Assembly: GCA_963701965.1 (NCBI GenBank)
Contig: OY969695.1
Coordinates: 1,952,001-2,016,000 of the forward strand
Origin: an uncultured Gemmatimonadales bacterium
GTDB lineage: Bacteria; Gemmatimonadota; Gemmatimonadetes; Gemmatimonadales; Gemmatimonadaceae
Length of the DNA stretch: 64,000 nt
Direction of reading: 5' to 3'
The translations under genes and the position numbers were made by a program. Below the pieces are notes generated by a model. That model was not told the DNA's origin, did no database searches, and was given only the letters and a program-made list of their open reading frames with translations. Shown piece by piece: positions 15,349 to 32,318 of the stretch (its first letter is position 1; each line of letters starts with the position of its first letter).

Positions 15349-18342
15349 ATGCTGCGCATGAGCCCAACAATCGTACGCGCACTTTCCATCGCAGGACTCG
15401 CGATCACGGCATCGCGATCACTCGGCGCGCAGGAGGTCGCGCGCCTCACGGGCCGAGTCGTGGATGCCGCGGACAAGATCCCGATATCGGGCGCCGCCAT
15501 CACCGTCACCGGCACGACCATCGGCGCCCTCGCCACCGACAGTGGCACATTCTCCCTCCGCCTGCCCACCGACGCCAAGACGCTCTCCGTCCGCCGGATC
15601 GGCTATCACCAGGCGACGATCCCCATCACACCCGGCGTCACCGACCTCACGATCGCCCTCGACCGCAATGTGCTCAAGCTGGAACAGCAGGTCATCACGG
15701 GCGTCGCCACAACCGTGTCGTCGAAGAACGCCGCCAACGACGTCGCCGTCGTCACCGCGTCCGCGGTCAACGAAGTTCCGGCCCCGACGATGGAAAACGC
15801 CATTCAAGGCAAGGTGGCCGGCGCCGTCATTCAAGCCAACAACGGCGGCGCCCCGGGCGGCGGCCTGCAGATCCAGGTCCGCGGGATCACCTCGATCAAC
15901 GGCAACGCCTCCCCGCTCTACGTCATCGACGGCGTCATCGTCAACAACGAGACGGTGAACAACGACGCCAACGCCATCAGCCAATCCGGCGGCGGCATAT
16001 CCACAACCGGCCAACCCACCGGCAACGCCCCCAGTCGCCAAGACAACGGCGTCAACCGGATCGCCGACATCAACCCCGAGGACATCGAGACGATCGAGGT
16101 ACTCAAGGGCGCGTCCGCATCCGCCATCTACGGCTCGCAAGCTTCGGCCGGCGTCGTGGTCATCACGACAAAGAAAGGGACACCAGGAAAGCCGAAGTGG
16201 AACCTCGACACCCAGGTCGGACACTTCGCGCTCGCCAACGAGCTCCCCGACCGGACATTCCCGACGTTGGCCAGCGCGCTGGCCTGGGGTCAGGAGTTCG
16301 GCAAGGATCCGACACTGATTCGTCAGGTCTACGCCGGCCCGCAAGACTATCAACGCCAACTCTTCGGCAACAACCAGGCGTCCTACTCGGCCAACCTCAG
16401 TGTGTCCGGGACCGTCGCCGGCGGCACGCAGTTCTACCTCGCCGGGAATTCCAAGTACGACAACGGCGTCGAGAACAACATCGGCTACACCAAGCAATCG
16501 ATCCGCGCCAACGTCACCCAGCCGGTCTCCTCGGCGATCTCGCTCTCGGCGAACCTGAGCTACATGCACGACCTGACCCGCCGCGGCATCACCGGCAACG
16601 ACAACATCGGCTTGAGCCCCTACAACGTCATCGCCAACACCCCACAGTTCGTGGCGCTCGACAAGCAAAATCCCGACGGCACCTGGCCGTCCAACCCGTT
16701 CGCGTCCGCCAACCCCTTCGCCGACGCCGCCGACATCGCCACACCCGAGGAAGTAAGCCGCTTCATCGGCGGCGGCGTATTCGACTGGACCGTGTTCCAG
16801 GCCGAGCACCAGTCCCTCAAGCTCACGATCAACGGCGGCGCCGATCTGACCAGCTTGCACGATCTGCTGTACGCCCCACCCGACCTGCAAGTCGAACTCG
16901 CGATCCCCACCGGGTTGCCCGGCACGTCGGTCTCCAACGTCGCCCAGACTAACTATTTCAACTACGCGATCAACCTCAATCACCACTACACGGGCCTCCA
17001 ATGGCTCGACGCCAACACCACGCTGGGATTCACGCGCGACCGGCGTGAAACCAACAACCCGGTGACCGTCGGCCAGAACCTGCTGCCCGGCGTCAACTCC
17101 CCGACCGTGGGCACGGTGCAGACGAACTTCTTCACCCGCACCGCCCAACTCGATCAGTCCCTGTACGCCCAGGAGCAGCTGCTCACGTTCGACTCGCACC
17201 TGAACCTGACCGCCGGCCTCACGGCCGAGCGCTCCACGAACGACGGGGACATCAAGACATTCTCCTTCTTCCCCCACTACTCGGCGTCCTACCGCACGCC
17301 GGCTTTCAGCGTCGTCAATGAGCTCAAGCTTCGCGTTGCCTACGGCCAGTCTGGCAACCTCGCCCCCTACGGCGCCAAGTACACGCCCTACAACCCCACG
17401 ATCGTCGGCGGCGGCAACGGCGTGTACGTGAACGCCCAACAAGGCGACCCCAACATCAAGCCCGAGTCCGAGACGGAGATCGAGACCGGCATCGACGCGA
17501 CGCTCTTTCATTCCCGCGCCCAGCTCACCGCGACGATCTACCAGAAGCGCCTGACCGACCTCTTGCTCCTGGCCAACGTCGCCCCGACGCTCGGCTACCA
17601 ATTCCAATTCTTCAACGGCGGCGAGCTGACCAACCAGGGACTCGAGCTCTCGCTCAATTCGACACCGATCCAGCTGCGCAACGGCTTCAACTGGCTCAAC
17701 TCGATCACGTTTTACCGGAACTACAGCGTGGTCAATGCACTGCCCACGCCATCAGGGCCGATTGGGTTCACGTTCGGATTCGGAGAGGGATTCTTGGCAC
17801 CCGGCCGATCGGTGTCCGAGGTCGTCGACGAGAGTCGCACCGGCCCCGGTGGCCTGCCGGTGCAAGTCGGCGATTTCCAACCCGGCTACCGGATCAACGT
17901 CGGCAACGAATTCGGTTGGAAAGGATTTCGACTCTACGGCCTGATCGAGTGGAGCCAGGGCGGCAGCACCATCGATCTGACCGACTTGTACTTCGACGGC
18001 GGACCCGGACTGTCGGGCGATCCCACCGCGTCGACCGCGCGCCTCAACTCGTTCCTCGGCGGCAACCCGACCGAATACGTGCAAGACGCGAGCTACTTCA
18101 AGGTCCGGCAAATCTCCCTGAGCTACGTGCTGCCGGCCAACATCGCCCGGTGGGCCCTGGGCGGCCGCATCAACAGCGCGCGCCTGACCCTCTCCGGCTA
18201 CAACATGTTCTCGGTTTTCAAATTCCCCGGCCTCGACCCGGAAGCCAGCGTCAACGGCAATCAGCAGATCACGCGGGGCCAAGACATCGCCCCGTACCCG
18301 CCCGCGAAGAGCTACTTCCTCGGCCTCAACCTGGGGTTCTGA
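15349..18342 (+). CDS. SusC/RagA-family TonB-linked outer-membrane protein (copy 1)
   Basis: Signal peptide, carboxypeptidase-like N-domain, PLYVIDG, DINPEDIETIEVLKGASASAIYG, C-terminal F; GAGGAG Shine-Dalgarno. Confidence 0.93.
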   Translation: MLRMSPTIVRALSIAGLAITASRSLGAQEVARLTGRVVDAADKIPISGAAITVTGTTIGALATDSGTFSLRLPTDAKTLSVRRIGYHQATIPITPGVTDLTIALDRNVLKLEQQVITGVATTVSSKNAANDVAVVTASAVNEVPAPTMENAIQGKVAGAVIQANNGGAPGGGLQIQVRGITSINGNASPLYVIDGVIVNNETVNNDANAISQSGGGISTTGQPTGNAPSRQDNGVNRIADINPEDIETIEVLKGASASAIYGSQASAGVVVITTKKGTPGKPKWNLDTQVGHFALANELPDRTFPTLASALAWGQEFGKDPTLIRQVYAGPQDYQRQLFGNNQASYSANLSVSGTVAGGTQFYLAGNSKYDNGVENNIGYTKQSIRANVTQPVSSAISLSANLSYMHDLTRRGITGNDNIGLSPYNVIANTPQFVALDKQNPDGTWPSNPFASANPFADAADIATPEEVSRFIGGGVFDWTVFQAEHQSLKLTINGGADLTSLHDLLYAPPDLQVELAIPTGLPGTSVSNVAQTNYFNYAINLNHHYTGLQWLDANTTLGFTRDRRETNNPVTVGQNLLPGVNSPTVGTVQTNFFTRTAQLDQSLYAQEQLLTFDSHLNLTAGLTAERSTNDGDIKTFSFFPHYSASYRTPAFSVVNELKLRVAYGQSGNLAPYGAKYTPYNPTIVGGGNGVYVNAQQGDPNIKPESETEIETGIDATLFHSRAQLTATIYQKRLTDLLLLANVAPTLGYQFQFFNGGELTNQGLELSLNSTPIQLRNGFNWLNSITFYRNYSVVNALPTPSGPIGFTFGFGEGFLAPGRSVSEVVDESRTGPGGLPVQVGDFQPGYRINVGNEFGWKGFRLYGLIEWSQGGSTIDLTDLYFDGGPGLSGDPTASTARLNSFLGGNPTEYVQDASYFKVRQISLSYVLPANIARWALGGRINSARLTLSGYNMFSVFKFPGLDPEASVNGNQQITRGQDIAPYPPAKSYFLGLNLGF

Positions 18343-18343
18343 C

Positions 18344-19816
18344 ATGCAACCGTCTCACACCATCGTCATAGCCGCGCTGGTACTCGCGGCGTGCTCCGAC
18401 ACCAACGTGCCTTTCTACACGGCGCCGACCGTACTGCCCAACACTCCGGCCGGCGTGACGACGGCGCTGACGGGATTGGTCAGCGCGTCGCGCCTGGACC
18501 TGGGCGGCGCCCAGGGGTTGTTCATGTTCGACATGGCGGGCTACGCGCGCCAAGCCGCGAACTATACCAATACCGAGCCGCGTTTCATTACCTACATTCT
18601 GGGCCTGGCGCCGATTCCGCCGCAGGGCTGGCCGGCCGTATGGGCGCTCTCCTACGGCGAGATCCTCCAGTCGCACCAGATCATCGCCATGATCCCCAAC
18701 GCCAATCCAACCTTCACGCCGCAGCAGGCCGCGGCATTGACGGGCATCACGCAAACGCTGGAGGCCTACGACTACATCGTCGTGGCCGAGGACCACGATA
18801 CCTTGGGCGCGGCCGTGTTGCCGCAGAACCCCGGCACGACTCCTCCGCCGGCATACTGTATCAAGGACGTCTGGAAGTACATCGTGGCGCTCCTCGATTC
18901 GGCCAACGCCAATCTCAACATGGCCGGCGCCACGTCCCTCAAGTTCGCCCAGCTCCCGCCGGGGTTCGCCGCCGTCAGCGCCGTCGCCGGACCGAGCACC
19001 GTCGCCGGCTCGTTCGCGTCATTCAATCGCGCGCTGGCCGGACGCGCCGGACTGGAACTGGCCTACGCGATCGCCCGCAGCAGTCCCGCGACCACACCGT
19101 CGGAAACATCGCCGGGACAACCCGACATCGCGGCCCTGACCGCGGCCGACAGCGCCATGAGCCATTCGGCGTTGTTCGATCCGGCGGCGCTCGCCCCCAA
19201 TCCGACGGACGGCTGGAACGCCGACGCGCATTCCGTGTTCTTCGATTTCAGCGCGCAGTCGGGAGATCAGACGAACCCGATGAACGGCGTCATCGGCACG
19301 ATGGTCGTTCTCAAGAACGTGCCCGACGCGCAGGACACGATCAACGATCTGCGCTGGAAAGCGAAGTTCATCGTCAATCCGAATCAGGTCCAGCAACAGG
19401 CGTTCGACTCGGTCGTGTCACCGTACATCTATGACATGTATCCGAGCCCCGCGTCGTTCCTGCCCATCGTGCGCGACGAAGGCCTCACGCTGACGGAAGC
19501 GCAGATTCAGCTCGGGCTCGGCAACTTCGGCGCGGCCGCGACGCTCGTCAACAATGTCCGGACGCAGGTGGGCGGATTGGCGCCGGCCACGATTCCCAAC
19601 ACCTACGTCGGCACCCGCGACGCCCTGCTGCACGAACAGCAGATCTCCTCGTTCCTGGAGGCACTCGGCGACCGCACCGTCGCCATCCGGATGTACAAGC
19701 TGGAGAAAGCGCTGCTCACCACGTGGGGAGTCCAGGACCTGCACACCACGATCGATCCCATCCCCGGCACGGAGCTGGCCGGGCGGGGCGGGACATTCAC
19801 GAAAACCTGTCCCTAA
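18344..19816 (+). CDS. SusD/RagB-family lipoprotein (copy 1)
   Basis: Lipobox LAAC, directly after SusC; PIVRDEGL.L.EAQ motif. Confidence 0.85.
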   Translation: MQPSHTIVIAALVLAACSDTNVPFYTAPTVLPNTPAGVTTALTGLVSASRLDLGGAQGLFMFDMAGYARQAANYTNTEPRFITYILGLAPIPPQGWPAVWALSYGEILQSHQIIAMIPNANPTFTPQQAAALTGITQTLEAYDYIVVAEDHDTLGAAVLPQNPGTTPPPAYCIKDVWKYIVALLDSANANLNMAGATSLKFAQLPPGFAAVSAVAGPSTVAGSFASFNRALAGRAGLELAYAIARSSPATTPSETSPGQPDIAALTAADSAMSHSALFDPAALAPNPTDGWNADAHSVFFDFSAQSGDQTNPMNGVIGTMVVLKNVPDAQDTINDLRWKAKFIVNPNQVQQQAFDSVVSPYIYDMYPSPASFLPIVRDEGLTLTEAQIQLGLGNFGAAATLVNNVRTQVGGLAPATIPNTYVGTRDALLHEQQISSFLEALGDRTVAIRMYKLEKALLTTWGVQDLHTTIDPIPGTELAGRGGTFTKTCP

Positions 19817-19817
19817 G

Positions 19818-20246
19818 TCAGGCGGGACGCAGGCGGCCGTCGACCCCCGCGCATCGCGCGCGGACGGCGGCCGTCAAGTCCTCGATGTCGAACGGCTTGA
19901 GCAGCACGGGACATCCGGTCGCCTCCAGCGTCGCGTAGGTGGCGATCGCAATGTCCCCCGTGATGAAAATCGTGCGCTCCCTGAGCCCGGGCTGCACGCT
20001 CTGCGCGTACTCGAACAAGAGATCGCCGCGTACGTCGGGGATGCGATAGTCGAGAATCAGGCAGTCGAAGCAATGGTCTCCCAGCAGCCGCTCCGCCGTC
20101 TCCCCACCCGGCGCGACGTCCACGACATACCCATCGCGCGTCAGCAACACGGCGAACGCCTGGCGGATCGACGGCTCGTCGTCCACCAAGAGAATGCGCA
20201 GGCCGCTGCCGCGGCGCCCGCCCGCCCTATCCCTGTCCGGCGGCAT
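19818..20246 (-). CDS. Stand-alone response-regulator receiver domain
   Basis: ILLVDDE, phospho-acceptor in CLILD, FITG, LLKPF. Confidence 0.88.
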   Translation of the reverse strand: MPPDRDRAGGRRGSGLRILLVDDEPSIRQAFAVLLTRDGYVVDVAPGGETAERLLGDHCFDCLILDYRIPDVRGDLLFEYAQSVQPGLRERTIFITGDIAIATYATLEATGCPVLLKPFDIEDLTAAVRARCAGVDGRLRPA

Positions 20247-21168
20247 GGCGCAACAGGGTGAGCACCGGCAGCGCCGCCGGCGCGCGCCGGCCCACCACCA
20301 GTGTCGAGAGACACTCCGACACGCACTGGTCCGGCGTCACGACGCGACGCCACGCCGCGAAGCGGCGCCCGCTCATCAGGCGCACATGCGCCGCGAACAC
20401 ACGGGCGTCCCCGTAGCCGAGGCGCTGCGCGACATCCGCCATCGAGAGCGCCGGATTCTGCGCGTATTGATACGCGCGCAGGACGCGCGCCGCGACGACC
20501 ATGACGCGGGCCGGCGCCAAGCCCAGCCGCTCCAACCACCGGTTCACGCCGCGCCGCGGCATCTCGGCCGCCAAGGCGACGTCGCCGGCGCTCTGAAAGC
20601 GCATCGGTCGCCGGAACAGCTCCTCGACCGCCCCCGCCAAAGCCGCCGGCGCCTCACCCGCCATGAACACCACCCGCAGCGCGCACACGATCCGCTCCTC
20701 GAGCCCCGACGCGCGCAGCGTTTCCAACCGTTCCCGGAATCGCGTCGGCTCGTCGTCGAACCCCCGCAGGATGCAATGCCGCACGCCGCACTCGCCGAGC
20801 GACAACATCGCTCTGGTGGATTCGGCGGTGATGGACGTGTACACCAGCATGGAGACCAATGGAAAGCCGGCGCGGATCGCCCGGACGGCCTCGATGTCCG
20901 CGGGGCCGTCCACGCACGGATCCACGACCGTGATCTCCACCGGTCGCGCGCGGAGCACGCCGGCCAGCGCCGGCCAGCTCGTCGCCGCGAGCACGGTGTG
21001 TACATCACCGGCCACGGCGCGCAGGTGGGACAACATCAATGGCGACAAACGGGCGACCAGCTGGAGCGCCGGCGCCCGATTCCGCCGTCGAATGACCCGA
21101 TCGGCGATTGGCAGGCACGGCTCGGTAACCGAACGTTCTGCGAGGCGGCAATGGTCCGCCGTCTCCAT
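20227..21168 (-). CDS. AraC-like HTH regulator with a degenerate receiver-like N-domain (start uncertain, between 21168 and 21036)
   Basis: C-terminal double HTH (SAGDVALAAEMPRRGVNRWL...SMADVAQRLGYGDARVFAAHVR); N-terminal VVDP and LVYT receiver-like segments; its end overlaps the receiver gene start. Confidence 0.75.
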   Translation of the reverse strand: METADHCRLAERSVTEPCLPIADRVIRRRNRAPALQLVARLSPLMLSHLRAVAGDVHTVLAATSWPALAGVLRARPVEITVVDPCVDGPADIEAVRAIRAGFPLVSMLVYTSITAESTRAMLSLGECGVRHCILRGFDDEPTRFRERLETLRASGLEERIVCALRVVFMAGEAPAALAGAVEELFRRPMRFQSAGDVALAAEMPRRGVNRWLERLGLAPARVMVVAARVLRAYQYAQNPALSMADVAQRLGYGDARVFAAHVRLMSGRRFAAWRRVVTPDQCVSECLSTLVVGRRAPAALPVLTLLRHAAGQG

Positions 21169-21183
21169 GCCTTCGAGGTAACC

Positions 21184-21402
21184 ATGCTCGTTCGCCCCGC
21201 CCGCGGCGCCGCTCTCGTACTCGGCGCTACGATACTCGCCCTCGCGACTGCCTGCGCCAGCCCCATGGCGCCCCACGCCGCCAACAGCGGTATCGGCGCT
21301 GGCTCCAGCGGCCAATCGACGTCGGTCAGCTCCGGCATCGGCGCCGGCTCCAGCGGTCAGTCGGCGGCCCACTCCGGTATCGGCGCCGGCTCCAGCGGCT
21401 GA
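21184..21402 (+). CDS. 72-aa exported peptide with three SGIGAGSSG repeats (candidate signalling propeptide)
   Basis: GAGGT Shine-Dalgarno at 21175-21179, ATG 21184, hydrophobic signal ending ATAC, three repeats differing only synonymously, TGA directly after the last repeat. Confidence 0.8.
   Translation: MLVRPARGAALVLGATILALATACASPMAPHAANSGIGAGSSGQSTSVSSGIGAGSSGQSAAHSGIGAGSSG
21286..21399 (+). repeat. Three 27-bp coding repeats (21286-21312, 21331-21357, 21373-21399)
   Basis: All three encode SGIGAGSSG; the spacers encode QSTSVS and QSAAH. Confidence 0.95.
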
Positions 21403-21422
21403 GCGCCCCTGCGGCGGCGCGG

Positions 21423-22745
21423 TCATCCGCTGACCGCGGCCATCAATCGGGCCCCGTGAATCGCCTCCGCTACCCGGCTCACGCCAGACGGCCGGGACGC
21501 CGCGGATATCGCGGGTAGCGCGGCGCGCGGCGCCAGATCGAGGCCGGAACGGAGCGCCGCGCGCGCCGCACCGGCGCGCTGTGCCAGTTCGGCCAGCCCG
21601 TGCCGTTCGGCGATGGCGACCGCCCGGTCGAATGCCGCCGCCGCGCGCACGGGCTGCCCGAACGTAATGTGGCCCTGCGCGACGTAGTACTCGAACTCGC
21701 CCGCCACCACCGGCGGCAGCGCCGCACCCGCCAGGGCTTTCCAATGGCGCCGGAAATCCAGCTCCGATCCCTCGATCGTCGCGATCTCAATGAGGTTGAC
21801 CGTCGCCACCCACCGCGTGTACGGCTCGTGCGCCGTGTCGGCGAGCAAGGCGTTCGCGTCGCGCGCGACATCGGGAAACCCGGCCAGCTGCAGCAACGAG
21901 GCCAACGTCACCAGCACGCGCTCGCGCTCCACCGCGTCGGCCGTGGAGACGAGCGCCTCGTAGCCATAGCCGATGCCCTGCTCATAGTCGCCGCGCTGCA
22001 GGGCCACGTTGGCCAGATCGTGCCAGGCGAACGCGCGCACTTCGCTGCAATCGGCGGCCGACGCGGCGGTCACGATCTCCAACAACTGCTCGTGCGCCTG
22101 CGGCAGATCGCCGAGACCCGCGCAGAGCTTGGCCTCGCCCAGTCGCGCCCGCAGCACGCCGCGCTGGTCGTTCCGCGACGCGGCCAACGACCCGGCCGCG
22201 TGAAACGCCTGCGCCGCCCTCGGCGCGTCGCCCAGCGTCCGATAGCAAATGCCCAGGTAGAGGGCCGCCGACGTCGCGACGTCGTCGTCGACCGGACCGA
22301 TGACCAGGTCGTCCACGTAGGCTTCCCACACCAGCGCGTAGACGTCGGCCGCCAATCCCCACGCCGAACGAACATGCAGCGCGCGGGCATATGCGAATAG
22401 CGGCGGGATGATGCGCGGGGATTCGCCCTCGCGTAGCGCGACGACACGCGCCACGATATTGCTCAGGAGACGCCGTTCGGCGCCCTCCAATGGCCACTCG
22501 GCGATCGCGTGGTGCACGGCATGGACTTCGTACTGGAACGCCCGCTCCTGCGCCCGCGCGTTGGCGAGCGACTCCGCGCCCCAGCGAACGGGTCGGGGAT
22601 GCCACGAGTCGAGTAGGCGAAGCGTGACGAGTCCCGCGCGCGCCGCTCTCCATCCATCGCTGGCCTCATCAGTAGACGCCAGCGCGTCGAAGAACGCGCT
22701 ATGCCGCAGGGACGTCTCAGTCTGAATCACTGGAACGACGGCCAT
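21423..22745 (-). CDS. Cytoplasmic all-helical TPR-like repeat protein
   Basis: TPR-like segments ALYLGICYRTLGDAPRAAQAF, AWHDLANVALQRGDYEQGIGY, YYVAQGHITFGQPVRAAAAFDRA; no signal peptide. Confidence 0.72.
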   Translation of the reverse strand: MAVVPVIQTETSLRHSAFFDALASTDEASDGWRAARAGLVTLRLLDSWHPRPVRWGAESLANARAQERAFQYEVHAVHHAIAEWPLEGAERRLLSNIVARVVALREGESPRIIPPLFAYARALHVRSAWGLAADVYALVWEAYVDDLVIGPVDDDVATSAALYLGICYRTLGDAPRAAQAFHAAGSLAASRNDQRGVLRARLGEAKLCAGLGDLPQAHEQLLEIVTAASAADCSEVRAFAWHDLANVALQRGDYEQGIGYGYEALVSTADAVERERVLVTLASLLQLAGFPDVARDANALLADTAHEPYTRWVATVNLIEIATIEGSELDFRRHWKALAGAALPPVVAGEFEYYVAQGHITFGQPVRAAAAFDRAVAIAERHGLAELAQRAGAARAALRSGLDLAPRAALPAISAASRPSGVSRVAEAIHGARLMAAVSG

Positions 22746-22873
22746 GATGTACCTCGGTGCGCTACGATATGGTAAGGCGGGGCAACGCGCCATGCCGTGA
22801 CCCAGTCCACAGACTCGGGCACCGAATCCCACGCCCGGACACTACTGTAATAGGCGACTGAGTGATATATCGT

Positions 22874-22899
22874 TCAATACCAACGCGTTACGGTATTGA
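22874..22899. promoter_or_regulatory. Inverted repeat (candidate operator) between the divergent TPR and permease genes
   Basis: TCAATACC-N10-GGTATTGA in an AT-rich patch; the spacer contains the palindrome AACGCGTT. Confidence 0.45.
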
Positions 22900-22938: not shown

Positions 22939-25326
22939 ATGCAATCCCTCGCCCAAGACCTCAAGCTCGCCATGCGCCGGATTGGGCGCTATCCGGCGAT
23001 TTCGTTTGCTATTATCGCGACACTAACGCTTAGTATTGGCGCCAGCGTCGCGACATTTAGTATCGTTAGCGGCGTTCTGCTCCACCCGCTCCCGTATCCC
23101 GAACCTGACCGTCTGCTCGTGCTCGCCCCGGATGGCGTATCGATACCGGACGGCGTCGACTGGCGGGAGCGGAGCCACACGCTGCGCGATGCCGCGCTCT
23201 TTCTCCCCACCTGGGATTTCGACCTGACCGGACGTGGCGCGCCCGAACGCCTGGATGGCGCTGTCATCGAGCCACGCCTGTTCCGCGTGCTCGGCGTGCA
23301 CGCCGAGTTGGGTCGGGATCTCAGCGACGCCGATGATCGCGCGGGCGGACCACACGTCGCCGTCATCGCCCGCGGCCTCTGGGTCCGCCGGTTCGGCGCC
23401 GACCCGCAAGCGATCGGGCGGACCATCACGTTGAATGGCGCGGCCACCACCATTGTCGGCGTCATGCCCGCCGAAGCGGACGTCTTCGGCACCGGAGTGC
23501 AGGTGTGGGTGCCGCAGGCCATCGAAACGCCGTGGGCCGCCACCAGTCGCGGGAGCAACAACTTCGCCGCCATCGGCCGCCTCGCGCCCGCGACCACCCT
23601 CGAGGCCGGACGCGCTGAATTGCTGACGATCAGCCGCGCATTGGCCGCCAAGTACCCGGACACGAACGAGGGCAAGCTCCTCGCGCCGGTACCGATCCTC
23701 GACGCCCTCGTCGGCCAGGTCCGGGCACCGCTCGTGCTCCTCCTCGCGGCCGTCTCGCTTGCGCTGCTCCTCGCCGCCGCGAATCTCGCGGGCCTGCTCC
23801 TCGCCCGCGCCGAGTCGCGCCGCGACGAGATCGCCGTCCGCCTCGCCTTGGGCGGCGGACGCCGGCGCATCGTGCGGCAACTCGTCACCGAAGGCGCCGT
23901 GCTCGTCGGCGTCGGCGCCGCCCTCGGCACCCTGCTCGCGGCCATGGGACGCGACCTCCTCGTCGCACTGGCCCCGGCGTCGCTGCCTCGCGCCGCGGAG
24001 ATCGGTATCGACTGGAGAGTCCTCGCCTTCGCCGTCATTGCGGCCGCGGTCACCGGCGCCCTGTGCTCGGCCCTGCCGGCGCTGGTGACGGTGCCATCCA
24101 GTCGCGCCCGCCGCGCCGCGCCGCGCTCCCGGACGTTCTTGCGCGGCCTCGTGGTGGGCGAGCTGACGGCGGGCCTCGTCCTCGTCAGCGGCGCCGCACT
24201 CCTGGCGCGCAGTCTCTTCGCCCTGGAACGCGTGAACCTCGGGTTTGATCCGGCGCGCGTCGTCACCGCCGACCTGGTTCTTCCCGAAGCGCGCTATGGA
24301 GTCCGCGAGCGGCAAACGGCGGCGTTCCTGGCCGCGGTGCGGGCGCTAGCCGTGGCGCCGGGAGTCGAGGCCGCGGGATCGGGGATGGGCATTCCGCTCT
24401 CCGGGAACATGCACGTCGGATACCGGTTCGCCATCAATGGACGGCCTCCGCTCCCCGCGGGTCAGGACGGCGCCGCCGATCGCCCGGTGACCGGTGAATA
24501 CTTCCGGGCAATGGGGCTGCCCCTCCTGTCCGGCCGCACCTTCACGGAATCCGACCGCGCGGGAACGGCACCCGTTGCCGTCGTCAACCAAACATTCGCG
24601 CGCCAGTACTGGCCCGGCGCGTCCGCGCTCGGCGCGCACGTCCACTGGGTCGGGATCGACGGTGGCGGCGCGTGGATGACGGTGGTCGGGGTCGTCGGCG
24701 ATGCGGCGGGCGCGGCGCCCACGACGCGCGATGCGCCAGCGATCTACGTTCCCTACGCCCAACGCACCGAGCAGTGGCAGCGATTTGGCACACTCGTCGT
24801 GCGGCTCCGCGCCGGCCTCGATCCTGCCGCCGGCGCCGCGCTCCTGCGGGATACCTGGGCCCGCGTGGACCCGGACGTGCCGCTCGCCCATGTGGGGCCG
24901 ATGACGCGCCGGCGCGCCGACAGCATCGCCCAGCCGCGGTTCAATGCGCTGGCGCTGGGCGTGTTCGCGCTCGGCGCGCTCATCCTCGCCGTGCAGGGCG
25001 TATACGGGACCGTCAGCTATGTCGTCGAGCAACGGCGGCGCGAGTTCGGCGTGCGCGTCGCCATCGGCGCCACGGCGCTCAATGTCGTGCGCATCGTCAT
25101 GCGCGACGCGGCCGCAATGGCGCTCGGCGGCATCGCCCTCGGCACCATTGGCGCATTGGCGGCGACCCGGGCCTTGGGGAGCCTGTTGTATGGCGTTGGC
25201 GCCAGCGATCCCGCGACGCACGCGGCCGCAGCCGCGGCCCTGGCCGCCGCCGCGCTCGTCGGCGCCTATGTCCCCGCGCGCCGCGCGGGCCGCGCCGACG
25301 CCGCCCAGTCCCTGCGCGGCGAGTAA
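22939..25326 (+). CDS. ADOP-type duplicated ABC permease (MacB/FtsX-like)
   Basis: MQSLAQDLKLAMR start, HPLPYPEPDRL, two FtsX-like halves (EIAVRLALGG, EFGVRVAIGA), ending PARRA...LRGE. Confidence 0.9.
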   Translation: MQSLAQDLKLAMRRIGRYPAISFAIIATLTLSIGASVATFSIVSGVLLHPLPYPEPDRLLVLAPDGVSIPDGVDWRERSHTLRDAALFLPTWDFDLTGRGAPERLDGAVIEPRLFRVLGVHAELGRDLSDADDRAGGPHVAVIARGLWVRRFGADPQAIGRTITLNGAATTIVGVMPAEADVFGTGVQVWVPQAIETPWAATSRGSNNFAAIGRLAPATTLEAGRAELLTISRALAAKYPDTNEGKLLAPVPILDALVGQVRAPLVLLLAAVSLALLLAAANLAGLLLARAESRRDEIAVRLALGGGRRRIVRQLVTEGAVLVGVGAALGTLLAAMGRDLLVALAPASLPRAAEIGIDWRVLAFAVIAAAVTGALCSALPALVTVPSSRARRAAPRSRTFLRGLVVGELTAGLVLVSGAALLARSLFALERVNLGFDPARVVTADLVLPEARYGVRERQTAAFLAAVRALAVAPGVEAAGSGMGIPLSGNMHVGYRFAINGRPPLPAGQDGAADRPVTGEYFRAMGLPLLSGRTFTESDRAGTAPVAVVNQTFARQYWPGASALGAHVHWVGIDGGGAWMTVVGVVGDAAGAAPTTRDAPAIYVPYAQRTEQWQRFGTLVVRLRAGLDPAAGAALLRDTWARVDPDVPLAHVGPMTRRRADSIAQPRFNALALGVFALGALILAVQGVYGTVSYVVEQRRREFGVRVAIGATALNVVRIVMRDAAAMALGGIALGTIGALAATRALGSLLYGVGASDPATHAAAAAALAAAALVGAYVPARRAGRADAAQSLRGE

Positions 25327-26733
25327 GCCGGCCCGTATACTCCACGCACGTCCAGAGCCGTCCTCACTACCATCGCCGCGACCGCGGCGGCGCGGCTCGC
25401 GCTGGCGGCCGCTTTTGGGCTGGGCGTCGATGAGTCCTACGCCGCATCGGTGGCCCGGCCACCATCGCTCAGCTACTTCGAGCACCCACCGCTCCATTTC
25501 TGGATCGCGGCGGGCGCCGAGGCGGTGGCGCGGGTCCACGGCGCGAGTCCCATGGCGGATCTGGCGGTGCGCGCGCCCTTCATCGCACTGTTCGCGCTGA
25601 CCACGTGGCTCATGTACCGCCTGACGGCACGTCTGTTCAATGAACCGGCCGGCGTCGCCGCGGCACTGGCGCTCAACGTCTCCGCCGTGTTCACCGTCAG
25701 CACCGGCGGGTGGGTCCTGCCGGATGGGCCCCTCATGTGCGCGGCGCTCGCCGCCGTCTACTGCGTCGTGCGCGCGGTCGACAATGACGCGCCGGCATGG
25801 TGGCTCGGAGCCGGGCTCGCGTGTGGTGTCGCTTTGCTCTCCAAGTACCACGGCGTGCTCGTTATCGCCGGGGTGTTTCTCTTTCTCGTGAGCACGCCGG
25901 GCGCGCGTCGATGGCTGGCGCGTCCCGCTCCCTATCTCGCCGTGCTCATCGCCGCTTTGGTGTTTTCGCCGGTGCTCATCTGGAATGCGCGGCATGGGTG
26001 GATTTCGTTCGTCTTTCAGCTCGGGCGCAACGCGCCGCCCCATGGGCGGCCGTTGCTCGCGCTGTTGCAGAACATTGGGGGGCAGATTGGCTTTGTGTTG
26101 CCGTGGGTGTGGATTCCACTGATCATGGCCTTCGTCTCGGCGCTTCGCGCCGGACGAAAAGACGCACGAGGGTGGTTGTGCTGCAGCCTGGCGATCATAC
26201 CCATCACGTTGTTCACCTTGGCGTCGCTGGGCGGGAATCCGGGGCAGCCGCATTGGCCGGCGCTCGGCTATCTCTTTCTCTTCCCTCTGCTCGGGCGCGG
26301 CGCGACGGCCTGGCCGTTTCGGCGCTGGCTCGCCGCGTCGTTCGCGGTGCTCGGCGCGGCCGCGCTCATCGTGTGTTGGCGCCCGCCGGCCGATCTCGTG
26401 GATTGGAAGGACATTCAGCAGCTCGATACGCGCGGCCGTTTCGTCGCGGCGCCGAGTTGGATCCAAGCGGGCAAGGTCGCGTGGGCGCTCGGTCCGGACG
26501 TGCCGGTGCTCTGTCTCAGCGTCGAGCCCCACCAATTCGCCTTTCTCCGGGACCCGCGCGATTTCGTCGGGAAAGACGGACTCCTCATCATGCGCCCCCA
26601 AGGCGCGAAGGCCACCCTGGCCCGGTACGCGTCCTTGTTCGCGGCGATCACCCCTCTCGGTGAACGGCCGATCACGCGCCTCGGCCGCACCCAGTTCACG
26701 GTGGCGGTCTTCTCAGCGACCCAAATGAAATAA
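25327..26733 (+). CDS. GT-C fold glycosyltransferase (family 39 / ArnT-like); start codon unresolved
   Basis: GVDESY, SYFEHPP, PDGPL, LLSKY and SPVLIWNA motifs; the open frame extends upstream of GTG 25450 to the preceding stop. Confidence 0.8.
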   Translation, partial: AGPYTPRTSRAVLTTIAATAAARLALAAAFGLGVDESYAASVARPPSLSYFEHPPLHFWIAAGAEAVARVHGASPMADLAVRAPFIALFALTTWLMYRLTARLFNEPAGVAAALALNVSAVFTVSTGGWVLPDGPLMCAALAAVYCVVRAVDNDAPAWWLGAGLACGVALLSKYHGVLVIAGVFLFLVSTPGARRWLARPAPYLAVLIAALVFSPVLIWNARHGWISFVFQLGRNAPPHGRPLLALLQNIGGQIGFVLPWVWIPLIMAFVSALRAGRKDARGWLCCSLAIIPITLFTLASLGGNPGQPHWPALGYLFLFPLLGRGATAWPFRRWLAASFAVLGAAALIVCWRPPADLVDWKDIQQLDTRGRFVAAPSWIQAGKVAWALGPDVPVLCLSVEPHQFAFLRDPRDFVGKDGLLIMRPQGAKATLARYASLFAAITPLGERPITRLGRTQFTVAVFSATQMK

Positions 26734-29171: not shown

Positions 29172-29200
29172 TTGACAGTTCCCGCCTGTGGTGTTATTCG
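29172..29200 (+). promoter_or_regulatory. Putative sigma70 promoter of SusC copy 2 operon
   Basis: TTGACA-17 bp-TATTCG with an extended -10 TG. Confidence 0.62.
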
Positions 29201-29315
29201 ATGGCCCGACCTTCATCACACGTCTCTATTAAGTCGTGGCGGGGCACTATGTCCGGTGCCGCGCTCCGGCGGAGCCGTGTCTGTTTGGGGGATAACACAT
29301 CCACCGGGGAGCGGA

Positions 29316-32300
29316 ATGAAACGAAACATGGTGCGCATGGTGGGACTCATGGCGGTCGCGTGGAGCGCGGCCGGTGCGCAGGAGGGCGGCCGGATCACGG
29401 GCCACGTGCTGGATGGCGCGGATAAGGTGCCTCTTTCGGCGGCCCAGGTTTTGGTCAGCGGCACGACGATCGGTACGATCACGAACGACAGTGGGACGTT
29501 CAACCTGCGCGTGCCGGCGGACGGCAAGAGCCTGACGGTCCGCCGCATCGGCTATCGGCAGTCGATTATCCCGTTGGTGGCCGGCCAGGCGGACTACACG
29601 GTCTCTCTGGACCGCGACGTGCTCCGTCTCGAGCAGCAGGTCATCACGGGCGTGGCGACAACCGTTTCGTCCAAGAACGCGGCGAACGCGGTGGCGGTGG
29701 TCTCCGCGGCGGCGGTCAACGAGGTGCCTGCCCCGACGATGGAGAACGCGATCCAGGGCAAGGTGCCCGGCGCGCTCATCGCGTCGAACAACGGCGGCGC
29801 CCCGGGCGGCGGACTCCAGATTCAGGTCCGCGGCGTGACGTCGATCAACGGCAACGCCTCACCGCTCTACGTCATCGACGGCGTCATCGTCAACAACGAG
29901 ACGGTGAACCCCGACGCCAACGCCATCAGCCAGTCGGGCGGCGGCACGACGTCGACCGGTCAGGCGGCATCGGCGGCGCCGAGCCGTGAGGACAACGGCG
30001 TCAATCGTATCGCCGACATCAACCCCGAGGACATCGAGTCCATCGAAGTCCTGAAGGGCGCGTCGGCGTCGGCCATTTACGGCTCCAAGGCCTCCGCGGG
30101 CGTGATCGTCATCACCACGAAGAAGGGCACCGCAGGCAAGCCGCGGTGGGACTTCAACTCGCAGCTCGGCCACTTCTCGCTGGAAAACACCCTGCCGATT
30201 CGCTCGTTCCCAACGCTCGGCAGCGCGCAGCTTTGGTATATCACCGACATCAAGGGCAAGGACGCCGCCACACCCGCGGCGACCGCGGACAGCGCGTTCA
30301 TCAAGACGGTCTACGCCGGTCCGCAGGATTACCAGAGCCAGTTGTTCGGCAATCCGCAGCTCTCGTACTCGTCCAACCTGAGCGTGTCCGGTACGGCCGG
30401 CCAGACGCAGTATTTCGTGTCCGGCCTCACCAAGTACGACAACGGCATCCAGGACAACACGGGTTACAACAAGCAGTCGATCCGCGCCAACGTCACGCAG
30501 GAGTTCAGCTCGAACTTCCACGTGTCGGCGAACCTGAACTACATCCACGACGTCACGCGGCGTGGTATCACGGGCAACGACAACATCGGCATCAGCCCGT
30601 ACAACGTCCTCTCGACGACGCCGCAGTTCGTCAGCCTGAATCATCAGGCCGCGAACGGCACGTGGCCGATCAACCCGTTCGGTTCGGCGAACCCGTTTGC
30701 CGACGCCGAGGAGATCGCCACGCCGGAGGCGCTGAGCCGCTTCATCGGCGGTGGCAACGTGAACTGGGACCTGTTCAAGACCGAGCACCAGACGTTGAAC
30801 TTCACGGCGATCGGCGGGGCCGACGTCGCGAACTACACCAGCCTCCTGTTCGCGCCGACCGACCTGCAGGTCGAGCAGTTGATTCCGAACGGTCTCGTGG
30901 GCACCTCGGTGACCAACTCGGCGTCGATCCAGTATTTCAACTACTCGTTGAACCTGAGCCACCACTACACGGGCTTGTCCTTCATGGACATGACCACGAC
31001 CGCGGGCTTCACGCGCGACCGGCGCAGCCTGACGAACCCGGTGACCGTCGGACAGAACCTGTTGGCGGGGGTCAACTCGCCGACGGTCGGCACGGTGCAG
31101 CAGAACTTCTATCAGCACACGCAGCAGCTCGACCAGTCGTTCTACGGCCAAGAGCAGCTGTTGCTCCTCGACCAGCGCCTCGCGCTGACCGGCGGCGTCA
31201 CGGCCGAGCGCTCGACGAACGACGGCAACATCGGACGGTTCTACGCGTATCCGCGCGGGTCGGCGTCGTTCCGGATCCCGCAGATCGCCAGCTTCGTCGA
31301 TGAGTTGAAGCTGCGCTTCGCCTATGGACAGTCGGGGAACCTGCCCCTGTACGGCGCCAAGTACACGCCGTTCAACCCGTCGCAGATCAGCGGCCTGGGC
31401 GGCATCTCGGGCAACCCGAACCACGGCGACCCGACGATCACGCCGGAGCAGGAAACCGAGATGGAGACGGGCTTCGACTTGACGTTCTTCAAGTCACGGG
31501 CGCAGTTCTCCGCGACCGTCTATCAGAAGCAGCTCTCCAACCTGATTCTCCAGGCCAGCGTTGCGCCGTCGCTCGGGTTCGCGACGCAGTTCTTCAACGG
31601 TGGTCAGTTCACGAACCAGGGTATCGAGCTGCAGCTGCAGGCAACACCGATCCAGACGCGTAGCGGCTTCGCGTGGACGTCGAACATCACGTACTCGCGT
31701 AACTACAGCGTCGTGAACTCGCTGCCCACGGCTCCTGGCCCGATCGGCAACACGTTCGGGTTCGGCAACGCGTTCCTCGCGCCCGGCCGCTCCGTCAGCG
31801 AGCTGGTGAATCCGAACATCCTCGGCAAGGACAACCTGCCGATTCAGGTGGGCGACTTCCAGCCGACGTTCCGGATGGACTTCGAAGAAGCGATTTCGTT
31901 TGGTCCGCTCCGCGCCTCTGGCCAGATGGAATGGAGCAAAGGCGGAAGCACGATCAACTTGACGAACCTGTACTTCGACGGCGGCCCGCAGCTCTGGGCT
32001 GACTCGGCGGCGTCCACGAACCGGCTCAATGCGTTCGTGAACGGCCTCACGCCGTATGTGCAGGACGCGACGTTCCTCAAGCTGCGTAACGTCTCGTTGA
32101 GCTACACGTTGCCCAAGGTCACGTACGGCTGGGCGCACGGGAAAATCGCCAGCGCCAAGCTGATTGCCAGCGGTTACAACTTGTTCAGCTGGTTCAAGTT
32201 CCCGGGACTCGATCCTGAAGTCAGCGTCAACGGAAATCAGACAGTCACACGAGGGCAAGACATCACCCCATATCCGCCGGCCCGAAGCTACTTCCTCGGC

Positions 32301-32318
32301 ATCGACCTGGGGCTCTGA
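29316..32318 (+). CDS. SusC/RagA-family TonB-linked outer-membrane protein (copy 2)
   Basis: Close paralogue of 15349-18342; signal peptide begins at ATG 29316 after a GGGGAG Shine-Dalgarno. Confidence 0.93.
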   Translation: MKRNMVRMVGLMAVAWSAAGAQEGGRITGHVLDGADKVPLSAAQVLVSGTTIGTITNDSGTFNLRVPADGKSLTVRRIGYRQSIIPLVAGQADYTVSLDRDVLRLEQQVITGVATTVSSKNAANAVAVVSAAAVNEVPAPTMENAIQGKVPGALIASNNGGAPGGGLQIQVRGVTSINGNASPLYVIDGVIVNNETVNPDANAISQSGGGTTSTGQAASAAPSREDNGVNRIADINPEDIESIEVLKGASASAIYGSKASAGVIVITTKKGTAGKPRWDFNSQLGHFSLENTLPIRSFPTLGSAQLWYITDIKGKDAATPAATADSAFIKTVYAGPQDYQSQLFGNPQLSYSSNLSVSGTAGQTQYFVSGLTKYDNGIQDNTGYNKQSIRANVTQEFSSNFHVSANLNYIHDVTRRGITGNDNIGISPYNVLSTTPQFVSLNHQAANGTWPINPFGSANPFADAEEIATPEALSRFIGGGNVNWDLFKTEHQTLNFTAIGGADVANYTSLLFAPTDLQVEQLIPNGLVGTSVTNSASIQYFNYSLNLSHHYTGLSFMDMTTTAGFTRDRRSLTNPVTVGQNLLAGVNSPTVGTVQQNFYQHTQQLDQSFYGQEQLLLLDQRLALTGGVTAERSTNDGNIGRFYAYPRGSASFRIPQIASFVDELKLRFAYGQSGNLPLYGAKYTPFNPSQISGLGGISGNPNHGDPTITPEQETEMETGFDLTFFKSRAQFSATVYQKQLSNLILQASVAPSLGFATQFFNGGQFTNQGIELQLQATPIQTRSGFAWTSNITYSRNYSVVNSLPTAPGPIGNTFGFGNAFLAPGRSVSELVNPNILGKDNLPIQVGDFQPTFRMDFEEAISFGPLRASGQMEWSKGGSTINLTNLYFDGGPQLWADSAASTNRLNAFVNGLTPYVQDATFLKLRNVSLSYTLPKVTYGWAHGKIASAKLIASGYNLFSWFKFPGLDPEVSVNGNQTVTRGQDITPYPPARSYFLGIDLGL

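Follow-up and report, generated by a model that had tools for sequence, protein, structure and literature searches.

A conserved four-gene cassette of Gemmatimonadota with a TPR protein and a lipoprotein-type small peptide, a candidate Rap-Phr-like signalling circuit

Genes and features of the cassette

In this work we analysed a 64,000 nt stretch of DNA, here called the window (C1:1952001-2016000 of a 5.1-Mb single-contig genome), for which a peptide-signalling cassette made up of a small exported propeptide gene, a tetratricopeptide repeat (TPR) receptor gene, an AraC-like regulator gene and a receiver gene had been proposed from inspection of the sequence. The features of this cassette, in window coordinates, are the following.

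21184-21402, plus strand: propeptide gene (P0001), 72 aa, with lipoprotein-type signal, short S-P spacer and three cores
21175-21179, plus strand: Shine-Dalgarno-like GAGGT of the peptide gene, read from the sequence
21184-21252, plus strand: signal of the propeptide gene, a hydrophobic leader
21253-21255, plus strand: lipobox Cys24 of the propeptide gene, assigned by pattern
21286-21312, plus strand: core copy 1, SGIGAGSSG
21331-21357, plus strand: core copy 2, SGIGAGSSG
21373-21399, plus strand: core copy 3, SGIGAGSSG, with a free C-terminus
21423-22745, minus strand: TPR gene (P0005), 440 aa, with its own GAGGT; putative receptor
TPR protein domains in the model: N-terminal helical bundle (~14-110), TPR superhelix (~113-400), flexible linker, C-terminal helix
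20227-21168, minus strand: pseudo-receiver/AraC regulator (P0003), with a receiver fold (~35-152) and an AraC-type double helix-turn-helix (HTH); start uncertain
19818-20246, minus strand: single-domain receiver (P0004), PF00072 at E 2.8e-16, with D22/D23, D66, T96 and K117 all canonical
21072-21081 and 21093-21102, plus strand: direct repeat of two CCCGAT-containing half-sites at 21-bp spacing, 112 bp upstream of the peptide ATG

The 72-aa open reading frame (ORF) with its own Shine-Dalgarno sequence, the three copies of SGIGAGSSG and the distance of exactly 20 bp between its stop and that of the TPR gene, to which it lies tail-to-tail, were all found as given in the original prediction, and GAGG is also present at the position of the ribosome-binding site (RBS) in four orthologues. 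The signal peptide then proposed holds as far as an exported-type leader is concerned; its type is that of a lipobox (Cys24), so that the product is a predicted lipoprotein and not a protein with a plain Sec signal. The minimal unit of the core is probably the seven residues G-I-G-A-G-S-S. Five nucleotide positions vary between the three core copies, all of them silently and including a switch between the Ser codons AGC and TCC, which shows selection on the peptide core; the silent-site fraction is 0.27, and we estimate the probability of such a silent-only pattern by chance at ~0.005, counting four codon events. A GC-rich hairpin (21417-21443) overlapping the TPR stop, where the two convergent genes meet, is a possible terminator; its folding energy is -20.8 kcal/mol over 21399-21450, without a shuffle control. 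A sigma-70 promoter scan returned 0 sites.

The TPR protein has a highest 19-residue hydropathy of only 1.31 and thus no signal or transmembrane segment, and no HTH was found by Pfam or in its structural model, which is all-helical with about seven repeats and a predicted local distance difference test score (pLDDT) of 90.9; the earlier description of a cytoplasmic TPR-like protein lacking an HTH is therefore borne out. Its Pfam TPR matches all lie under the curated cut-offs, and no match to a Rap, NprR, PlcR, AimR or other RRNPP family was obtained in Pfam, NCBIfam or PHROGs at the thresholds used. No known RRNPP receptor was present among the 60 of 105 PDB sequence matches listed, and ESM Atlas returned only unnamed or TPR clusters, mostly from Gemmatimonadota. 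Structural alignment matched the model to Rap pLS20 (6t46; Z 22.5, root-mean-square deviation 8.2, 325 aligned residues), RapH (3q15; Z 21.8, 6.3, 327), NprR (5dbk; Z 21.8, 5.3, 289) and RapF (3ulq; Z 20.1, 6.6, 324), with RapI and RapF together at Z 20.1-20.2. The Rap chains cover model residues ~30 to 385 at a structural-alignment identity of 8-12%. As these alignments start at residue ~30, the layout of a bundle followed by TPRs is common to RapF and the TPR protein; given this low identity and the generic nature of matches between TPR folds, the alignment denotes likeness to Rap rather than membership. Residues conserved as Arg, His, Asp or Asn fall on the concave face by TPR register, not by coordinates: among 175 family members R169 is found in 169, R276 in 156, Asp at 280 in 157 and Asn or Glu at 317 in 163. 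The window's clade has Thr or Ser where the family usually has Asp280.

As originally described, the AraC-like gene lies head-to-head with the peptide ORF and its end overlaps the lone receiver gene, by 20 bp. The protein matches HTH_18 at E 1.4e-7 and 32.2 bits (cut-off 33.6), and since its receiver fold, in which D83 is invariant, is missing the acidic pair and the Lys, it was classified as a pseudo-receiver/AraC fusion; pLDDT is <50 across most of residues 1-30. Motif sampling on 88 dereplicated regions upstream of peptide genes produced the direct repeat TGtCnCAAAA at 21-bp spacing. On the resulting matrix, which was trained on the same loci it scores, the repeat reaches >=12 bits in 132/152 AraC-linked loci (median position -113, 10-90% range -122 to -107) and in 3/10 loci without a detected AraC gene, and the five AraC-less peptide genes of the window's own genome score <=2.6 bits. 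In the clade of the window the repeat takes a different form, with two copies of CCCGA(A/T) 21 bp apart; four loci have it at identical offsets and a fifth has it shifted by 3 bp. AraC proteins bind spaced direct repeats of such kind, and the 21-bp repeat upstream of the peptide gene is likely an AraC-type operator to which the regulator would bind. Scanning the genome with the family matrix gave 11 sites of >=14 bits. The only strong one (28 bits) has no cassette in its neighbourhood, lies in a region poor in long ORFs (L262, near 6736-6771, minus strand) and is a possible regulon target or remnant.

Distribution and conservation of the cassette

The single TPR protein used as a query was positive in 14/21 genomes; five congeneric genomes gave 7-21 matches apiece, and 15 others gave 0-1. 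A 23-row profile, for which <=5 candidates were scored per genome, matched 117/301 genomes of the phylum, mostly from two families of one order. An unpublished genome (G012) is counted as one genome in both tallies, and its loci enter neither the alignments nor the locus counts. Each of the 80 named related loci belongs to Gemmatimonadota, a phylum of bacteria with two membranes, which agrees with the diderm host originally proposed. Grouped at 50% identity, the matches of the TPR profile with E up to 1e-30 form 801 clusters, and there are 16-21 receptor-family genes per well-assembled genome of the genus.

Linkage was scored at 129 loci (L001-L140, minus 8 that were duplicates or from G012 and 3 with <500 bp downstream). 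A convergent lipobox ORF with an ATG start follows the TPR gene in 119 of these, compared to 23/600 control ORF ends of the window's own genome, and a co-directional one in 1/129; the scan of TPR homologues for linked small signal-bearing ORFs, suggested with the original prediction, thus gave a clear positive result. The lipobox pattern was relaxed after viewing misses, and the relaxed form was applied to the control too; the stricter form gave 103/129 against 15/600. The median stop-to-stop distance is 28 bp, the peptide gene is accompanied by an AraC gene in 112/129 loci, and all four genes are found in 83. In a set of 175 unique full-length loci (220 minus identical and partial receptors) a peptide gene is present in 162 and peptide plus AraC in 152. 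The 10 loci missed include four TPR-AraC arrangements without room for a peptide gene, one peptide that lacks the Cys and another whose start was not recognised. At L016, L017, L019 and L024 the AraC-like gene directly follows the TPR gene with no peptide gene between; these, together with other peptide-less paralogues, may be orphan receptors. At L018, a paralogue-linked locus, the signal and the Cys-bounded core are kept and Tyr replaces the lipobox Cys, possibly making this peptide a non-lipidated variant.

The 119 peptides have mature parts with a median of 24 aa and a hypervariable tail with a G-S-x-x bias. Nearly all (118/119, compared to 10/40 other long lipoproteins of the same genome as the window) have a T/S-x-P-like motif after the Cys, the +2 residue after the Cys is Ala, Thr or Ser in 115, and 77 have two extra Cys, most commonly with a loop of 7. 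The cores are small units rich in Gly, Ser, Thr and Asn which are neither cationic nor amphipathic. The multi-core propeptide of the original prediction is correct for this locus, with its three cores, and is the minority form in the family, since tandem cores occur in 9/119 peptides (up to six copies, in L121) and most are single-core. Independent tandem core expansions were seen in L121, L129, L110 and L140. The closest orthologues with downstream DNA (L002, L004, L005 and L006) each have two copies of their own core, and these align as G-hydrophobic-x-x-G-S/G-x.

The window's own genome has 17 members of the TPR family including the one described here (E <1e-25; one is partial). For eight of the 17 a small lipobox ORF lies convergent to the TPR gene; the Gly-rich cores of these ORFs all differ, and 6/8 are bounded by two Cys. 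An AraC-like gene follows four of the TPR genes, three times with a peptide gene in between. Across the whole genome 38 short lipobox ORFs were detected, and all 8 of those that combine an ATG, an RBS and a Gly-rich tail end <=172 bp from a TPR match. One TPR and one AraC paralogue are split across frames (near C1:4790900 and C1:1706600) by frameshift or assembly error. A lone AraC-like paralogue with no TPR or peptide gene beside it (L263:4768-5592) stands between homologues of two cassette neighbours, which border the cassette in 40 and 44 of the 79 named loci, and has orthologues at 72-74% identity in three congeners; it looks like an ancestral site after the TPR-peptide pair was lost or moved.

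The genome encodes family-5 peptide-binding proteins (SBP_bac_5), signal peptidase II (Peptidase_A8) and LolA. An SBP_bac_5 gene lies immediately upstream of the TPR gene in 10/79 named loci, and another AraC-like paralogue (L261:4206-5129) is found three genes upstream of such a gene (7011-8693); the family-5 peptide-binding genes near the cassette and at L261 are candidates for an uptake system. A class A penicillin-binding protein (PBP1A) gene is present <=3 kb upstream of the TPR gene in 28/79. In the window, two similar SusC-like TonB-dependent transporter genes (15349-19816 and 29172-32318) were identified, and the SusD-like lipoprotein gene after the first ends 1 bp from the receiver gene; the SusC/SusD pair was not counted as part of the cassette because no match was found beside it in the 79 named loci (3-kb flanks). 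An ADOP-family duplicated permease gene (22939-25326; TIGR03434, above cut-off) is divergent from the TPR gene and recurs in 3/79 loci, and a PMT_2 glycosyltransferase gene (25450-26733) is found upstream of the cassette in 5/79. A mobile-element origin was considered and dropped: of 24 candidate viral-contig stretches none was confirmed, and no plasmid match was obtained, at limited sensitivity. With likewise limited sensitivity, neither TPR protein nor peptide matched PHROG or PADLOC, and a defence system was rejected, the only match being a marginal one of the AraC HTH to mad1 (E 9e-4).

Co-divergence of TPR repeats and peptide core

Co-variation between receptor and core, also put forward with the original prediction, was analysed on 76 path-independent pairs from an AraC tree of 152 loci. 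It was found in part: repeats and core diverge together, without being specific to the groove. Given AraC distance, core distance correlated with the TPR groove at r 0.41, with outer positions at 0.46 and with the N-terminus at 0.10, and the windowed correlation begins at TPR residue 151. For residues 151-400 the partial r with the core is 0.43 (p 1e-4) given AraC, N-terminus and signal; with all controls the TPR N-terminus gives -0.27 with the core. The N-terminus and AraC, which correlate at r 0.61, are the two sequences that flank the block described next.

Block exchange explains this co-divergence, because close pairs lose DNA identity sharply over repeats plus core while their flanks stay high. 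Between L141 and L143 the flanks are mostly 90-97% identical (lowest 83%), the repeats 68-86% and the core 52%; between L122 and L109 the flanks are at 84-94% and the block at 49-79%. A comparison with L142 is less clear, with upstream synteny lost. Silent and replacement divergence are both raised in the swapped block. The signals of L002 and L004 are at a distance of only 0.09, their cores at 0.69, and the TPR repeats have changed as well. Taken together, these alignments indicate that old receptor-peptide alleles, composed of TPR repeats and core, are exchanged as one block between conserved flanks, which the convergent layout allows. Such exchange fits cognate pairs under diversifying selection, and linkage alone can mimic the correlations.

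A complex was predicted for the TPR protein (100-row alignment) and the last 30 peptide residues (5 rows). The score was 0.42 (runs 0.42, 0.02 and 0.63) versus 0.01 for the best of 3 controls, with contacts agreeing at >=48% and a partner pLDDT of >=38. This mark is reached by 116/157 solved complexes and 2/215 mismatches, and at scores <=0.60 by 18/157 solved complexes and both mismatches. The model weakly backs binding of the core by the TPR protein, and likeness to solved TPR-peptide complexes could contribute to the score.

A signalling circuit, its alternatives and known systems

We consider it probable, at roughly 60%, that the conserved four-gene cassette is a Rap-Phr-like peptide signalling circuit with a lipidated precursor, in which we infer binding, release, uptake and expression, with release, uptake and the target of the TPR protein taken by analogy from Rap-Phr. 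The small lipoprotein would be exported and lipidated, as its lipobox and the encoded signal peptidase II and LolA families suggest, and the core would then be cut loose by a protease outside the cytoplasm, three copies giving up to three signals per precursor. Re-imported through a family-5 peptide ABC transporter, the core would be bound by the cytoplasmic TPR protein. The N-terminal bundle of the latter may hold the AraC protein until peptide binds, i.e., act as an anti-activator in the way that RapF holds ComA, and the freed pseudo-receiver/AraC regulator would drive the peptide gene through the 21-bp repeat in a positive feedback. The receiver could be targeted by the TPR protein as well, in the manner of Spo0F and RapH. 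The tail-to-tail layout would join both specificity determinants in one swappable block and so give rise to signalling dialects between strains. The original prediction of a quorum-sensing module analogous to RRNPP systems is supported as regards linkage, Rap-like architecture and co-divergence; its precursor turns out to be of the lipoprotein type.

Several observations weigh against a signalling circuit. The predicted lipid anchor would keep the precursor in the membrane, and a scan of 14 neighbouring ORFs, 12 of them chosen from 40 clusters made up largely of shadow frames, revealed neither a dedicated protease nor a modifying enzyme in the conserved surroundings of the cassette. The structure search that had been suggested against Rap, NprR and AimR returned Rap and NprR rows at Z 20-22.5, and above them in the ranking (Foldseek, VIA-align) stood LGN/Pins at Z 23-25.5; judging from the model the fold match is generic for TPR superhelices, and most LGN/Pins alignments leave the N-terminal bundle uncovered. 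Groove-specific co-variation was not detected, as 237/500 random position sets matched the groove set (Mann-Whitney p 0.077), and since the TPR repeats track the signal region too (r 0.33, all controls), physical linkage alone could give the co-divergence. In the window's own genome 9/17 TPR paralogues have no peptide gene and 5/8 receptor-peptide pairs no adjacent AraC gene. On the family matrix, itself trained on its own loci, the window's repeat reaches only 3.9 bits, and the clade pattern is not enriched at 21-bp spacing (14 genome-wide, 3-14 at other spacings). Finally, three close orthologues begin the AraC-like gene at an ATG which in the window reads CTC (21066-21064, with a 3-bp shift), and the gene here must either start at ATG 21168, reading through the operator, or start downstream, or be poorly translated.

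The lipid anchor, in speaking against free diffusion, is also an argument for an unlikely alternative, a cell-autonomous monitor of export or of the envelope, in which the TPR protein binds the core in the same cell, as unexported precursor or recycled periplasmic fragment, and the circuit would serve as a readout of lipoprotein export, of processing or of redox state, or as a timer, instead of a gauge of population density. The PBP1A gene near the TPR gene in 28/79 loci favours it, as does the T/S-x-P-like motif, which suggests dedicated trafficking or cleavage. A monitor gives no reason, however, for hypervariable cores, block swaps and 8 distinct pairs in a genome, and the peptide of L018 keeps signal and core with the lipobox Cys gone. 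Somewhat less probable still is that the peptide is the output, a surface lipopeptide tag switched by AraC (a contact-dependent kin marker, adhesin or small toxin), with the TPR protein sensing something else or being a cognate chaperone or immunity protein. In E. coli, Ala, Thr or Ser at the +2 position after the lipoprotein Cys means sorting to the outer membrane, and by that rule 115/119 peptides would go there; the operator-like repeat upstream of the peptide gene and the missing groove-specific signal agree with an output too. It sits poorly with a TPR protein that is cytoplasmic and Rap-like with a conserved polar concave face, with the non-cationic, non-amphipathic composition of the cores, and with the complex prediction, which weakly favours binding (0.42 vs 0.01). 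That a piece of the signal peptide cleaved off the lipoprotein serves as ligand, as in enterococcal pheromones, and that the mature part is a by-product, is very improbable: the precursor is a lipoprotein and the repeats track its signal region (r 0.33), but duplication, silent-only change and hypervariability are all in the C-terminal core, and in L002 and L004 core and repeats differ with a signal that barely does. Least probable of all is mere linkage of hitch-hiking genes, which suffices for co-divergence and for several TPR paralogues without peptide, but not for a pair kept across at least two families of the order and after repeated duplication to new, AraC-less sites in five loci of the window's genome.

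Building on the signalling circuit, a broader proposal to which we give even odds is that of a phylum-specific language, in which lipid-anchored precursors yield 7-residue linear or disulfide-looped signals that are read by Rap-like receptors controlling a pseudo-receiver/AraC activator. Dialects would change by block swap, expansion in the genus would provide at least 8 private channels in this genome, and peptide-less receptors may eavesdrop. PMC10075063 describes peptide signals as characteristic of Bacillota, and small molecules as the usual signals in Proteobacteria and Actinobacteria. The cassette likely works as a peptide cell-to-cell circuit whose kind we saw described in Gram-positive bacteria alone, and no account of the cassette in Gemmatimonadota was found in the literature searched, which included few subscription papers. 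If the signalling circuit is real, it would be a first candidate communication system for Gemmatimonadota and an RRNPP-style family for quorum sensing that is native to a phylum with two membranes, extending the cytoplasmic-receptor mode of peptide signalling across an outer membrane (117/301 sampled genomes of the phylum). Two mechanistic questions follow, namely by what route a signal anchored to lipid is set free and taken up again, and in what way cores looped by a disulfide can be read inside the cytoplasm. The 162 natural receptor-peptide pairs, including near-identical backgrounds with swapped alleles, are available for work with short synthetic peptides.

In PMC10075063, the RRNPP signature is an intracellular TPR receptor of 250-500 aa, hosted by Bacillota or their mobile elements, with an adjacent propeptide of 10-100 aa at -60 to 400 bp which has an RBS and a Sec/SPI signal in the strict form or Sec/SPII in the relaxed one. 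The receptor described here has 440 aa, no transmembrane segment or signal and a TPR superhelix in the model, and the propeptide has 72 aa and a GAGGT, its gene ending 20 bp from the TPR gene. The cassette departs from the strict Sec/SPI form by the pattern-based lipobox, at Cys24 here and in 119/129 loci overall, and from the host range, all 80 named related loci being from Gemmatimonadota.

Rap-Phr of Bacillus and its mobile elements (RapF-PhrF-ComA, RapH-Spo0F, Rap pLS20), the RRNPP branch without an HTH, is the closest in plan. Both have a cytoplasmic all-helical receptor of similar size with an N-terminal bundle, a TPR superhelix and no HTH (in the model for the present protein; bundle plus TPR domain for RapF in PMC3601957), an adjacent small exported precursor with a C-terminal core, and response-regulator-type proteins as candidate targets. 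Paralogue expansion is shared as well, and intragenic core duplications are reported for Phr and NprX in PMC5199041, so that the triple core is not itself new. The cassette differs from Rap-Phr in its host, its Sec/SPII precursor, its convergent genes, its 7-residue Gly-rich cores (Cys-bounded in 77/119), the 8-12% identity to Rap chains with no RRNPP family match, and its candidate target, the adjacent pseudo-receiver/AraC protein, which itself departs from a canonical receiver-AraC response regulator in having D83 but no acidic pair or Lys. With NprR-NprX, PlcR-PapR and AimR-AimP it shares the TPR fold (NprR at Z 21.8) and the adjacent propeptide, along with the core duplications of nprX; unlike in those systems, the receptor lacks an HTH and DNA binding is left to a separate AraC-type protein. 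Searches of viral contigs and plasmids gave no relative for the queries used.

Enterococcal sex pheromones (cCF10/PrgX) are ligands from the signal peptide of unlinked lipoproteins, read by a TPR-type receptor. Lipoprotein origin and receptor type are thus alike, whereas here it is the C-terminal end of a linked micro-lipoprotein, dedicated to the system, that varies and is duplicated. The agr and comQXP systems have a hypervariable block of signal and receptor specificity between conserved flanks, as seen here, and agr peptides are cyclic; these systems use membrane histidine kinases and dedicated modifying enzymes, whereas the present receptor is in the cytoplasm and the conserved surroundings of the cassette showed no modifying enzyme. 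LGN/Pins (GPSM2), the best structural match, binds extended peptides in its groove; it is eukaryotic, and the match denotes only a generic peptide-binding TPR superhelix. By analogy, the cassette, at most a putative member of the RRNPP group, likely works like Rap-Phr.

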